A DNA stretch of 62,635 bases, counting the filler. It is 3 parts of 3 records of this genome, joined end to end, with 100 filler letters (N's around TTAATTAATTAA, not from the genome) between each part and the next. Parts side by side here need not be neighbours in the genome. Positions count along the whole stretch, not along the records: positions 22,284 to 44,285 come from SRR31156797_1872; 2 more parts are not named here. One strand, written 5' to 3'. The translations under genes were made by a program, and so were the position numbers. The notes below the pieces were generated by a model. That model worked only from the letters and a program-made list of their open reading frames with translations, did not search any database and was not told the origin of the DNA. Below, in pieces: positions 27,900 to 32,907 of the stretch (the first letter of the stretch is position 1; each line of letters starts with the position of its first letter).

Positions 27900-29777
27900 A
27901 TGAGCTGGGTATCAAGAAGTTTATTAAGGGTGATCCTGTTTCCTATTATCATACCAATTTTGGCTGGAATTATGGGGCTTGTATTCTACGTCCAGAACTC
28001 TTCCTATAAAATGGTTCTTGATAATTCGATGGAGTCTGCCAGCAGTCAGGCAGCTATCATAGCTTCTTCTCTTGATCTGTTTGTTACTGATACAGTGGCG
28101 GTGGTTAAAAGCCTTTCCGGGCAGGGTGCAGTAAAGGCTTTATTTGAAGATAAATATTTGTCTGCCGGAAAGTTGTTTAAAGAAACTATGCGTAACAATG
28201 AAGTGATCTGGGCCGTGTTGGCATTTGATCGCAACGGTAAAGTTTTGTCTGGAATGACCAGTAAGGGCGGTATTCTGGATGGACTTGATATCAGTTCCCG
28301 AGATTACGTAAAAGCTATTTTAAAAGGTGAGGATAGTTATATCACCGAGTCTGTTTTTAGGTCCAAAACTGATAATAATTTGCTTTTCGGCGCTAGCTCA
28401 GCAGTCAAGGATGCACAGGGACGCGTGTTGGGCGGTATTGCGGTCTTTGGTGACTGGGCGAAATTTTCAGATCGTTTTGTGCGGCCTGTTGTTGTTGGCA
28501 CTGAAGGATACGGGGTAATCACTGATGCTGAAGGGTTGGTGCTTTATCACCCTGCTACAAAATTGATTTTGAAAGATTTAAGCAAGTACGATTTTATGAA
28601 AAGGGCACTTGCTGCTGGTGCAGGGAAAGAATTTTACAACTGGCAGGGCCGCAGTAAGGCCATGATTTTCAAGACCGACCCCAAAACAGGATGGCTGGTA
28701 ATGCTTACAGCCTATGAGAGTGATCTGGCTTCCGCAGCTGTAATGCAGCGTAATGTTCTGACAGTTGTTGGCGGGCTGATTATTCTGGTGGTGTGCGGCA
28801 TTGTATATTTTTCAGTACGCAGGCTGGTTATTGTTCCTGTCCGTGGTGGAATGCAGGTGGCCGGGAAAATGGCTGCGGGCGATCTTACTGACTCCGTTAC
28901 AAGTGACTCTCCCAACGAGATTGGTAAGTTGATGCGCTCTCTGGGTAGTATGATTTCATCCCTGCGTGGAGTTGTGGTTGGTGTTAAATCCGCAGCTGAG
29001 CAGGTTGCCGCAGGCAGTGAGGAAGTCTCAGCTTCTGCCCAGCATCTTTCAGCTGGGGCCACTGAACAAGCCGCTTCCGTGGAGGAAGTTTCAGCCTCTA
29101 TCGCTCAGATGACCGGTAATATTTCCAAGAACACAGAGCTTGCAGAAGAGACCCGTGAAATAGCTGTGAAAACTGCCCGTGAGGCTGTGAATGGCGGGGA
29201 AGCTGTTTCTCAAACAGTGGGGGCCATGCAGGATATTGCCGAGAAAACTTCCATAATTGAGGAAATCGCACGTCAGACTAATCTTTTGGCTCTGAATGCT
29301 GCCATTGAGGCTGCTAGGGCCGGGGAGCACGGGAAAGGATTTGCCGTGGTCGCTTCAGAAGTACGTAAGCTTGCAGAAAGGAGCGGTGTAGCGGCCGGGG
29401 AGATCAGGGAATTGACAGGATCAAGTTTGCAGGTTGCAGAGAGGGCCAAGCAAGTGCTGGATACCATGATTAAAGACATCAACCGCAATGAGGAACTTGT
29501 TGGTGAAGTTGCTGCTGCCAGCCGTGAGCAATATGAGGGTGGGCAGCAGATTTCAAAGGCTATTACTCAACTCGATGAGGTTATTCAACGTAATGCTGCT
29601 TTTGCGGAAGAGTTGTCTTCCACTTCCGAAGAATTATCTGCTCAGGCGGTGAAGCTTCAGGATACAATGCAGTTTTTTATTGTTCCAGATGATAGGACGC
29701 AATTTTCGCCAGTTATTCAGAGAGAAAACACCCGCATTCCGGAATTGGAATCCGGAGATGGTTTTGAGCGCATGTGA
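27900..29777 (+). CDS. Methyl-accepting chemotaxis protein (dCache-HAMP-MA)
   Basis: Two TM segments, Cache-like periplasmic region, [30 protein letters not shown]. Confidence 0.95.
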
Positions 29778-29818
29778 GGATGACAAACAGTATAAAAGAC
29801 TTATCTTATAATAAAGAC

Positions 29819-30146
29819 ATCATTTTTGATGAGTTAACCGGGAGGAGGTATCAGGGCTTCTTTTGAGGAGCCTGAATGGTCGCAATCCTGTTTTCCGATT
29901 TGCCGGGAAAACGGCTGCAAGGACAGCGATGTCAGCAGTTGTACATATCAGGTTGTCCACTCTATCTGGAGTACGTAGGAGCGCAGAGTCAGCTGTTAGT
30001 TGCCCGGAATATGTCCGGTGTAAACAATGCACTGTAGCAGTAGTTCTTTCGTGAGGTGGAAAGCGGCTGGTAATCTCCTCCTGTTCACATAAATATCTGG
30101 TTGTGGTTAGATTGAAATGCGGCACTTTGTGCCGCATTTCTTTTTT
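29819..30146 (+). ncRNA. Candidate structured sRNA of unknown family
   Basis: TATAAT at 29807-29812; ends GGGAGGAGGTATCAG and CTGGTAATCTCCTCC are complementary; several internal hairpins; strong terminator; no credible ORF. Confidence 0.55.
30114..30146 (+). terminator. Intrinsic terminator
   Basis: GAAATGCGGCAC-TTT-GTGCCGCATTTC perfect 12-bp stem followed by TTTTTT. Confidence 0.9.
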
Positions 30147-30212
30147 GTTATTTGTTCTTGCTCAACTAGCTGAAAAGGTACATATTTATCAAAATATAAA
30201 TGGAGTAAATAT

Positions 30213-30965
30213 ATGTCTGTCGGCCGCTTCAAAATTTTTATTGTGATTATACTGATTTTGTTGGGGATCAGTGTTGGAAGCGCGAGTGCCGATAATGTTA
30301 TATATCTCAGTTCCCTTGAATGGGCTCCTTATGTTGGGCGGCGTCTTCCGGAAAATGGAACCAGTGCAAGAATTATACGGCAAGCCTTTGCGGCTATGGG
30401 CTACGAATTGAAGATTCTTTTTCTGCCTTGGAAAAGGTCAATGCGCATGGTCGAAACCGATTTTCAGGTTGCAGGCTATTTCCCTGAATACTATTCCAAA
30501 GAAAGAGCCGAAAAGTTTATTTTTTCGAAAAGCTACGGCTGCAGTCCGGTAAGCCTTCTGGAACGTAAAAAGAAACCAGTTCGTTGGGGAACCGTTAACG
30601 ACCTGGCCGGACTCCGGGTGGGGTTTGTTGCCGGCTATGTGAATACTCCGGAGCTGGATGAGGCTGTTGCCAATGGCACTATCAATGCTGACTTTGCCCC
30701 TTCTGACAAAAGTAACATCATGAAAGTTATCAAAGGCAGGATCGATTGTGCCGTGGTGGATCCTTTGGTTTACAGTTATCTGGCTGTTACTGATCAGGAA
30801 GTTGGAAAATTTAGTGATACTGTCCAGATAGAACCCAGATCCTTCGGTGTTAATGAGTTGTTTGTCGCATTCCGAAAAGATGAACAGGGGCGTTTTTATG
30901 CCCGTATTTTGAATGAGGGGTTGGGTAAGATCGGTATTGCAGGTGCTTGTAGGCAGCACGATTAA
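30213..30965 (+). CDS. Family 3-type solute-binding protein
   Basis: Signal peptide; EWAPY, LPWKRS, DLAGLRVG and GRID motifs. Confidence 0.85.
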   Translation: MSVGRFKIFIVIILILLGISVGSASADNVIYLSSLEWAPYVGRRLPENGTSARIIRQAFAAMGYELKILFLPWKRSMRMVETDFQVAGYFPEYYSKERAEKFIFSKSYGCSPVSLLERKKKPVRWGTVNDLAGLRVGFVAGYVNTPELDEAVANGTINADFAPSDKSNIMKVIKGRIDCAVVDPLVYSYLAVTDQEVGKFSDTVQIEPRSFGVNELFVAFRKDEQGRFYARILNEGLGKIGIAGACRQHD

Positions 30966-30975
30966 AGGTATTCTG

Positions 30976-31599
30976 ATGTTAGTAAATGAAATTTCCTCTT
31001 ATAGTTTTGAGAAACCCGCACTTTATCTTTTGTCTTTATTACTTGGAACACTGAACGATATTTCGGATCTGACGGTTCCGTCCGATTTCGGACTGCTCAC
31101 ATTTAAGGGGATGGACCTTTTGCAGGAGCGGGGGCAAATACCTAAGCTGGAGTTGAATTTTAATCTTAAAGGCGGAAGTTTTCGGGCTGTTTATTTCGGT
31201 CACGTATCTCCTTTCAAGTTGGGACGTGTCCTGCTCATTCAGGAAGATAAGGCGGAAGTAGACCTTGTGTTTTCTGATGCTGGGAAAGTCCAAGTCCCAA
31301 TGCAGGCGGCTGCGCAGGTTGCAGAGATTCCTCACGGACTAAATTGGAATATTCTTGCCGGCAGTCTTTCATTGTGGCGAGCTTGTTGCGGGTTGCCGAA
31401 CGGTTGTGATCCTTCGCTCGGAAAGTATTTCAATAAAATGAAAACAGTTTCCCGTTATCAGTGGGAAAAGGTCAGCTATGATATCAAAGGAAATGAGATT
31501 GTTGAGGAATGGTCAACGAGTCTTTCTGATGCAATAGGTCGTAATGTGACGGTTGTTTTTGTTATAAAAAATGGATTGATCTCTGTATTGAAATATTGA
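30976..31599 (+). CDS. Hypothetical protein
   Basis: ORF directly follows the solute-binding gene; AAGGT RBS before ATG 30976; no motif recognised. Confidence 0.6.
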   Translation: MLVNEISSYSFEKPALYLLSLLLGTLNDISDLTVPSDFGLLTFKGMDLLQERGQIPKLELNFNLKGGSFRAVYFGHVSPFKLGRVLLIQEDKAEVDLVFSDAGKVQVPMQAAAQVAEIPHGLNWNILAGSLSLWRACCGLPNGCDPSLGKYFNKMKTVSRYQWEKVSYDIKGNEIVEEWSTSLSDAIGRNVTVVFVIKNGLISVLKY

Positions 31600-31755
31600 T
31601 GGTATGTATTACCGCGTTAACGTGTATTGTAAGATGGTTATTTGTGTTATTCTAGTACACGCTTAGTCTTCCCCTGAGTAGGGAGATGGGCACTAACTTG
31701 ACTTAAATTGTTCTCACAGTTACACCTTGCCCTCGTTTTTAGCTCGGGGGGAGCT

Positions 31756-32907
31756 GTGGATAAATTAAATTTTATGGGCGAATTTAAAGATTCTGTCCTT
31801 GAAGAGGCGTTTCAAAAAGAGAAACGGCCTTCAGTCAGGTTTAGACTCCTTTTTTTGTATTTCGTCACAATAGTTACATTTCTTGCGGGTGGGTACAGCG
31901 ATTACGCTGATCTTGGCCCCGGCTCTGAATTTCATACTATTTTAGTGGGAAGAGTGGGCGCATGCCTTTTGGGTGGGCTAGCGTTTACCCTGCTTTTGAC
32001 TGACAAAGTCAAACTTAAGGTGCAGTACCTTTTCATGTTTTTGTGTATGTTTTCAGTTCTGGCAGTTGAATCATTGGAGTTGGCAGTCAAATTTTCAGAT
32101 ATAGGTTCACTGAGTGTGCCGGTAACTGTCTTTATTGTTTTGGCTTACTATATTCTTTTACCGCCACGCACCACGCCACCATTCATAGCGGCTGTTTGCG
32201 GATCTGTTTTTTATCTGGGCGCCTTGTCATATGTCCTTCCAGTTTATTCAGGAACTTTTGTAAATTCTGCAATTTATCTTTTATTAGCCAATATCTTCGG
32301 TGCTTTTTTTCTTTATACTTTTGGTAGATCGCTACGTCGTGAGTATGCTGCAATGGAAGATTTGAAAAAGCTGGTGGCTGTCGATGAACTTACTGGAGTA
32401 TATAGCCGCCGCAAGGTTCTTGAAGCCGGGGATTGTCTTTTAAAGTCCGCACGTCGTTTTAACAATAGGCTGTCAGTGTTGATGATGGATATTGACCATT
32501 TTAAGAAGGTCAATGACGATTACGGGCATTCTGTGGGTGATGAGGTTCTGAAGGAGACAGCCAGTCGATGCAGTGACGTTCTTCGGGAAGTTGATCATTT
32601 TGGTCGTCTTGGCGGAGAAGAGTTTTTGGTGATTCTTCCCTATTCAGGGGTGCATGACGGCATAAAGGTGGCTGAAAGACTACGTGCCTCTATCCGTGAA
32701 CGGACGTTTCAGGTAGGGGAAAATTCTTTGCCTGTTTCGGTAAGTGTCGGGGTCGCTGAGTTAAGCGGGCATGAAGATTTTAAAAGTTTGATTCAAGAGG
32801 CAGATGAACAACTTTACCGGGCCAAGAGGTGCGGTCGGGATCAGGTCTGTCCGGAAACGTTCAAGGTGGTCCGGCAGGTTCACTATGAGGAAATTTCTGT
32901 GAAATAA
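31756..32907 (+). CDS. Membrane-bound diguanylate cyclase
   Basis: Multi-TM N-terminus, DELTG, DIDHFKKVND, RxxD I-site (REVD), GGEEF; start uncertain (31708, 31756 or 31774). Confidence 0.92.
   Translation: MDKLNFMGEFKDSVLEEAFQKEKRPSVRFRLLFLYFVTIVTFLAGGYSDYADLGPGSEFHTILVGRVGACLLGGLAFTLLLTDKVKLKVQYLFMFLCMFSVLAVESLELAVKFSDIGSLSVPVTVFIVLAYYILLPPRTTPPFIAAVCGSVFYLGALSYVLPVYSGTFVNSAIYLLLANIFGAFFLYTFGRSLRREYAAMEDLKKLVAVDELTGVYSRRKVLEAGDCLLKSARRFNNRLSVLMMDIDHFKKVNDDYGHSVGDEVLKETASRCSDVLREVDHFGRLGGEEFLVILPYSGVHDGIKVAERLRASIRERTFQVGENSLPVSVSVGVAELSGHEDFKSLIQEADEQLYRAKRCGRDQVCPETFKVVRQVHYEEISVK

Follow-up and report, generated by a model that had tools for sequence, protein, structure and literature searches.

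A conserved, structured non-coding RNA upstream of a presumed solute-binding and diguanylate-cyclase operon in Maridesulfovibrio

Introduction

Few bacterial non-coding RNAs longer than 250 nt have a multi-branched fold supported by covariation, and the known examples have mostly proved to be ribozymes, riboswitches or protein scaffolds. Four described groups lie closest to the RNA reported here, and it resembles each of them in part. With the orphan large structured RNAs (raiA, OLE, ROOL and GOLLD) it shares a length of several hundred nucleotides, a multi-branched covarying fold and conserved unpaired nucleotides; with transcriptional riboswitches and leaders, the 5' co-oriented position to a gene (here that of a solute-binding protein) and a P1-closed junction fold followed by a terminator; with the CsrB/RsmY/RsmZ sponges, the layout of a stand-alone gene with its own promoter and terminator, many hairpins, and CsrA encoded in the genome; and with 6S RNA, the stand-alone gene and the pairing of the 5' and 3' ends as a long closing stem. 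To our knowledge, the RNA regulators of marine sulfate-reducing bacteria are almost unstudied.

The locus lies in a window of 62,635 nucleotides (the whole stretch of DNA analysed, filler included), which we assign to Maridesulfovibrio because the PdxA protein encoded near the RNA is 97% identical to that of a metagenome-assembled genome (MAG) of this genus. A sequence-only reading of the window had proposed a novel structured small RNA on the plus strand, with its own promoter and terminator, and possibly a CsrA/RsmA sponge. We find that positions 29814-30146 (+) hold a conserved, structured, non-coding RNA, and we weigh what it might do.

Results and discussion

The locus

The gene for a methyl-accepting chemotaxis protein (MCP; 27900-29777, +) is the upstream neighbour of the RNA in the window, and the gene for a periplasmic solute-binding-like protein (SBP) follows it. 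The end of the MCP reading frame at 29777 and the start of the SBP reading frame at 30213 leave the 435-bp gap that the sequence-only reading had given, and all the sequence strings which that reading listed are present where it placed them. The element spans 29814-30146, with a predicted length of about 327-333 nt, the promoter giving the predicted 5' end and the terminator U-tract the 3' end. The features of the locus are:

29780-29785, +: -35-like hexamer ATGACA (CTGACA in 11 of 12 relatives, ATGACA in one)
29802-29812, +: -10 region, TATCTT (29802-29807) overlapping TATAAT (29807-29812), from promoter scan and conservation
29814-30146, +: predicted RNA, from conservation, covariation and strand asymmetry
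30084-30113, +: conserved linker TTCACATAAATATCTGGTTGTGGTTAGATT, with GGTTGTGGTTAG at 30099-30110, invariant or nearly so in 12 sequences
30114-30146, +: intrinsic terminator, from a scan, with a 3-nt loop
30157-30189, +: conserved block CTTGCTCAAC..AAAAGGTACATATTTAT (TTGCTC-17-CATATT) before the SBP gene, in 12 of 13 sequences
30213-30965, +: SBP gene, 250 aa, with a weak match to SBP_bac_3 (E 4.8e-4, 20.3 bits, below the 26.4-bit cut-off)
30913-32907, +: rest of the presumed operon, a 228-aa ORF (30913-31599) and a membrane GGDEF cyclase (31708-32907)

The NCBIfam models of amino-acid binding proteins match the SBP far below their cut-offs. The 228-aa ORF, whose first 53 nt overlap the end of the SBP gene, belongs to no Pfam or NCBIfam family, and its best score in a protein atlas (0.76) was uninformative.

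Distribution among relatives

The homologues collected comprise full-length copies in 11 of 26 Maridesulfovibrio genomes and a divergent form in a further one, G005. BLAST of 29800-30150 matched the same number of genus representatives, nine over the full length (70-88% identity) and two over the 3' part only; a covariance model built on a 258-position core of the alignment recovered all 11 carriers in full, at 203-267 bits, and found G005 as the twelfth by a local match (20.2 bits, E 2.6e-5). Three further matches within the genus are weak (14-15 bits) and short (32-55 nt). Beyond the genus nothing convincing emerged. Over 151 genomes of the family, the model gave two matches, one in G001 and a weak one in G163 (16 bits). 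A two-motif pattern, run over 401 genomes, matched nine, all of them known carriers, and none of about 375 other family genomes; its control matches numbered zero. One pattern match in a metagenome was unconfirmed by the model and was treated as chance. No match to the RNA was found in the plasmid and phage collections, nor did the model match the regions upstream of distant SBP orthologues (39-57% identity) in 10 loci; in two such regions (L053 and L061), read by eye, nothing recognisable was found. To judge from these genomes, the RNA family is confined to one sub-clade of Maridesulfovibrio, of about a dozen species. Within a genome it is a single-copy element: GGTTGTGGTTAG occurs exactly once in each of three genomes searched.

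Transcription signals

The TATAAT that had been placed at 29807 is located at 29807-29812, within a predicted promoter that the scan reads as ATGACA-16-TATCTT. The general form, CTGACA-16-TATYTT/TATAAT, is kept in all 13 sequences, in line with the earlier proposal that the RNA has a promoter of its own: the (G)CTGACA block stands at a fixed distance from the -10 region throughout, the 12 close sequences all share the CTTAT of the -10 region, and in G005 a spacer of 16 nt separates CTGACA from TATAAT. Transcription would thus start at about 29814-29820. The gene upstream varies: in G003 and G004 it is pdxA, in G005 it encodes a PAS-GGDEF protein, and in the window, as in its closest relatives, it is MCP; conservation behind three different upstream genes argues that the promoter is autonomous.

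G003 and G004 lack an MCP gene between pdxA and the RNA; the RNA promoter there starts no more than about 70 nt past pdxA (L005 10975-11045), and the MCP gene thus looks like an insertion or loss internal to the clade. Upstream of the pdxA region in G003, two hairpins (L016 218-281 and 389-441) score 25-31 bits with microRNA-precursor models, below threshold and on both strands, and are for the latter reason probably long near-perfect palindromes. The promoter core itself, CTTAT-N3-ATAA(T/G) at 29800-29816 and in the homologues, is partly palindromic (ACTTAT TTT ATAAGT in G020), and could be a candidate operator overlapping the -10 region.

At the other end, the perfect 12-bp terminator of the sequence-only reading is found at 30114-30140, followed by T6; its helix shows compensatory changes in 6 of 12 pairs, with 99.3% of cells paired. 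Neither pdxA nor MCP has a terminator of its own, and both presumably use that of the RNA. The block beyond it, also written CTTGCYCAAC..AAAAGGTACATATTTAT and unalignable in G005, lies between the terminator and the SBP start codon and is conserved in sequence but unstructured; it agrees with the sigma-70 consensus in 3 of 6 and 4 of 6 positions, is unflagged by the promoter scan, and reads as a putative weak promoter-like or operator-like element.

The predicted fold

The consensus fold, computed with RNAalifold on an alignment of 12 sequences (334 positions; G005 outside it), has 78 pairs in 13 helices. The end pairing that had been proposed is present in both its 5' arm, GTTAACCGGGAGGAGGTATCAG, and its 3' arm, CTGGTAATCTCCTCCTGTTCAC (30067-30088); its core is helix P1 of the consensus. 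In the predicted architecture, P1, a stem of 11 bp, would close a multi-branched core, inside which the P2 hairpin would be followed by P3, enclosing a three-way junction of P4, P5 and P6 and several small hairpins:

29839-29849, +: P1 5' arm CGGGAGGAGGT, pairing with 30073-30083; 11 pairs, 8 of them invariant in 12 sequences
29854-29873, +: P2 hairpin, GGGCTTC / GGAGCCT; compensatory changes in 7 of 7 pairs
29878-29883, +: P3 5' arm GGTCGC, pairing with 30063-30068 (GCGGCT); compensatory changes in 5 of 6 pairs
29887-29952, +: three-way junction of P4 (CCTG / CAGG), P5 (TTTTCCG / CGGGAAA) and P6 (ACGGCTGC / GCAGTTGT); compensatory changes in 3 of 7 pairs of P5 and 4 of 8 of P6
29951-29962, +: near-invariant GGTTGTCCACTC, being the end of P4, the junction and the start of P7 in the alignment; GGTTGTCCAATC in G005
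29956-30055, +: small hairpins P7 to P11 of the consensus fold, including P9 (CCCGG / CCGGT); compensatory changes in 2 of 4 pairs of P10
30044-30055, +: invariant TTC-TTTCGT-GAG hairpin of the consensus fold, 3 bp
30073-30083, +: P1 3' arm ATCTCCTCCTG, partner of 29839-29849

Among the 12 sequences, just one pair of P1 is changed on both sides; P7, P8 and P11, in which compensatory changes are absent altogether, are weakly supported. The hairpins named in the sequence-only reading fare differently: GCTTCT/AGGAGC and CCGGA/TCCGG are kept, as P2 and P9, and CTGTTTTCC/GGAAAACGG survives in part, as P4 plus P5. In place of AGCAGTTG...CAGCTGTT the consensus has P6, and CTTTC...GAAAG gives way to the conserved TTC-TTTCGT-GAG, since its GAAAG side is altered in 5 of 12 sequences.

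The version in G005, of about 400 nt, is a long variant that Maridesulfovibrio sp. FT414 carries; it retains the same promoter block, GGTTGTCCAATC, CTCTTTCGAGAG, GGTTGTGGTTAG and the terminator. Its P1 is CAGCUGGUG/CACCAGCUG, in which three positions are changed on both sides and one G·U has become A-U; its P4 is UCCG/CGGG and its P6 GGAAACCGCC/GGCGGUUU. Folded alone, this RNA does not stand out from shuffles (z -1.37), of which 10 in 100 fold as well. It also carries an extra segment of about 100 nt (L036, ~1700-1760) in which a hairpin precedes T7 (GGTCCGGTTTTTTT), a putative internal terminator.

Selection on the plus-strand RNA

The plus strand of 29830-30146 folds with a minimum free energy of -118.9 kcal/mol, whereas shuffled sequences give -95.1±5.4 and none of 100 does as well (z -4.4); the value for the minus strand is -90.7 kcal/mol. 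Over the 12 aligned sequences, 94.1% of 933 cells in paired positions are paired. The covariation test on the homologues finds compensatory changes in 29 of 78 pairs, above shuffles (12.8±2.3; 0 of 500 as high) and above controls in which the partners were slid by 1-3 columns (4-10 pairs), counts to be read with the provisos that all 13 sequences are from one genus, that related sequences can beat shuffles, and that one alignment supplied both the fold and the counts. The low slid controls, together with the replacement of P1 in G005, argue for a real signal.

The strand is given by the wobble pairs. The paired cells hold 102 G·U against 8 A·C, so that 94.1% are paired when read on the plus strand and 84.0% on the minus strand; the plus strand is thus the RNA strand, as the sequence-only reading had suggested from its many G-U pairs. 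The RNA is also conserved beyond its surroundings: its identity to the window is 65-87%, against 25-63% at the four-fold degenerate sites of the adjacent SBP gene in the same genomes.

Could the conservation instead lie mainly at the level of DNA, in promoters or operators of the SBP gene and a shared terminator, or in the reading frame of a small protein? The linker invites the first thought, since the scan flags TTCACA-18-TAGATT within it as promoter-like and its conservation could therefore be DNA-level; the terminator, serving as it may an upstream pdxA or MCP gene with none of its own, points the same way. For the second, a minus-strand frame of 100-108 aa is open in several of the closest relatives. 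However, neither DNA sites nor reading frames yield 29 compensatory pairs or the G·U excess, and in G005 the hexamers of the linker are poor, yet GGTTGTGGTTAG is identical. As for coding, at least 6 of the 12 sequences break the minus-strand frame (105 aa) with a stop or a frameshift, ORFs on the plus strand vary in position and length between sequences, and frames on either strand of the RNA region have no match in Pfam. We hold this explanation to be very improbable. The results confirm 29814-30146 (+) as a conserved, structured, non-coding RNA.

Searches against known families

In Rfam 15 (4227 models), no match reaches the gathering threshold anywhere in the window. With the E-value relaxed to 10, the region 29700-30250 gives 15 sub-threshold matches, the best at 27.6 bits against a threshold of 56 bits; 13 overlap the terminator and two lie at 29773-29831. 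Across five homologous loci, Rfam models likewise find nothing over the RNA core and nothing at or near the gathering threshold. A full-text search of the published literature found no report on this RNA among the papers listed; PMC8632094, as far as searched, holds nothing on it, and passages of PMC11124144 deal with Rfam-based predictions in another genus.

The novelty claimed by the sequence-only reading thus stands, and its description as a structured plus-strand small RNA with promoter and terminator is supported by the Rfam negatives, the covariation, the G·U excess and the conserved signals together. By these comparisons the RNA is a family not catalogued so far within the bacterial structured non-coding RNAs, and the alignment and model of this analysis are sufficient to propose it as such.

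GGA motifs and CsrA

An RNA that titrates CsrA through several GGA motifs was the function suggested earlier, and some observations fit it: csrA is present in 3 of 3 genomes searched (PF02599 above cut-off), the size and the many hairpins are like those of RNAs of the CsrB/RsmZ type, and the nine GGA triplets that had been claimed are indeed counted in 29814-30147, where 5.7 are expected. Across 12 sequences, however, the RNA has 5-11 GGA triplets against 5.0-6.8 in composition-matched shuffles, so that the motif is barely enriched; no more than two GGA columns persist throughout the 12, each of them base-paired in P1. Fully unpaired triplets number at most 1-5 per sequence, at positions that differ between sequences, and the two that had been described as lying in small loops are unconserved across relatives.

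The type of CsrA also speaks against titration. In G001, a flagellin-family gene, csrA and fliW stand in a row in a flagellar cluster (L073 3-2168), and in the fliW-linked class of CsrA it is the FliW protein, not a sponge RNA, that acts as antagonist; we know of no sponge RNA for this class. The suggestion is thus unsupported, and we regard it as highly unlikely. In three genomes searched (G001, G003 and G005), an Hfq domain was not found.

The adjacent operon and the question of a leader

In 13 of 13 cases the RNA immediately precedes, in the same orientation, an orthologue of the SBP gene (58-88% identity). In G005 the pair is found elsewhere in the genome, behind a different gene, and a homologue of the 228-aa ORF (31% identical) again follows the SBP.

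This constancy, which extends to the rearranged G005, fits a cis-acting element equally well, namely a leader or attenuator of the SBP-X-GGDEF operon in which the core would sense a ligand or protein and the terminator, as expression platform, would allow regulated read-through. The layout recalls transcriptional riboswitches, with a P1-closed junction fold and a terminator 67 nt before the SBP start codon, and since the promoter candidates between RNA and SBP gene are all weak, the operon may depend on read-through. A switch could even be drawn: the P3 5' arm could pair with the 5' arm of the terminator, as both of its possible partners contain GCGGC.

The alternative pairing is not maintained, however. 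It is broken in G001 and G016 and shows one double change, against four for P3; in G001, the change in P3 is compensated inside P3 and not in the terminator. Other anti-terminator or pseudoknot pairings (GUCCAC with GUGG, CAAUC with GAUUG, and a hairpin bridging linker and terminator) were considered, and none is consistently conserved; by eye and by helix scan of the alignment, no consistently conserved alternative pairing able to open the terminator was found. A conserved linker of about 30 nt separates P1 from the very strong 12-bp terminator, with no overlapping anti-terminator visible, and the block that follows the terminator keeps its sequence but forms no structure, as a DNA site would.

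The MAG contig G013 bears on the same question. Here (L003/L050, ~1030-1125 in pdxA orientation), the pdxA stop runs straight into the 3' arm and U-tract of the terminator, from which it follows that the RNA was deleted down to the terminator loop, along with the MCP gene if this was once there; the contig nevertheless retains the conserved block and an intact SBP gene. With no match to a riboswitch, T-box or leader family of Rfam, and a distribution very narrow for a riboswitch, we consider a cis-acting leader, the main rival reading, possible but distinctly the less probable, at somewhat under one chance in three.

A stand-alone regulatory RNA

The reading we favour, to which we give about an even chance, is that of a stand-alone regulatory RNA of a new family. 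The RNA would be transcribed from its own sigma-70-type promoter (CTGACA-16-TATYTT/TATAAT), be ended by the strong intrinsic terminator, and act in trans as a regulator through a protein or RNA partner. Contacts would most likely be made by segments that are invariant and for the most part unpaired. The foremost candidate is the 3' module UGUUCACAUAAAU...GGUUGUGGUUAG, immediately preceding the terminator; the others are GGUUGUCCACUC and the hairpin UUCUUUCGUGA. It would probably work in the circuit of the adjacent operon (SBP, a protein of no known family and the diguanylate cyclase), its constant genetic neighbour. A search for duplexes between the RNA and the translation start of the SBP gene was without signal (z from -2.2 to +1.0, at inconsistent sites).

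More speculatively, and in our view rather improbably, the RNA may represent a new class of large sensor RNA, whose core would bind a small molecule or protein and pass the signal to the module of periplasmic sensor and diguanylate cyclase, by terminator read-through or in trans. If this were true, it would constitute an RNA input into c-di-GMP signalling in sulfate reducers. In any event, the RNA is genetically tied to an operon of a periplasmic binding protein and a diguanylate cyclase in marine sulfate-reducing bacteria. As the promoter and terminator signals are clear, a knockout or Northern blot should be straightforward. With about a dozen species in a single genus its range is narrow, which limits its wider importance for now.

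Comparison with known RNA classes

Set against the four groups named at the outset, the Maridesulfovibrio RNA departs from each in a different respect. 6S RNA forms a rod with a central bubble, whereas the core enclosed by P1 is multi-branched, and the 6S model is absent among the matches obtained at E up to 10. The CsrB/RsmY/RsmZ RNAs carry an array of conserved loop GGA motifs, which this RNA lacks, and the csrA gene here is of the fliW-adjacent type. In contrast to riboswitches and leaders, no conserved anti-terminator was found for it, a conserved promoter-like block follows its terminator, and its natural deletion in G013 spares the downstream gene. Compared with raiA, OLE, ROOL and GOLLD, it has no Rfam match, occurs in only some members of one genus, and keeps to a single neighbouring operon.
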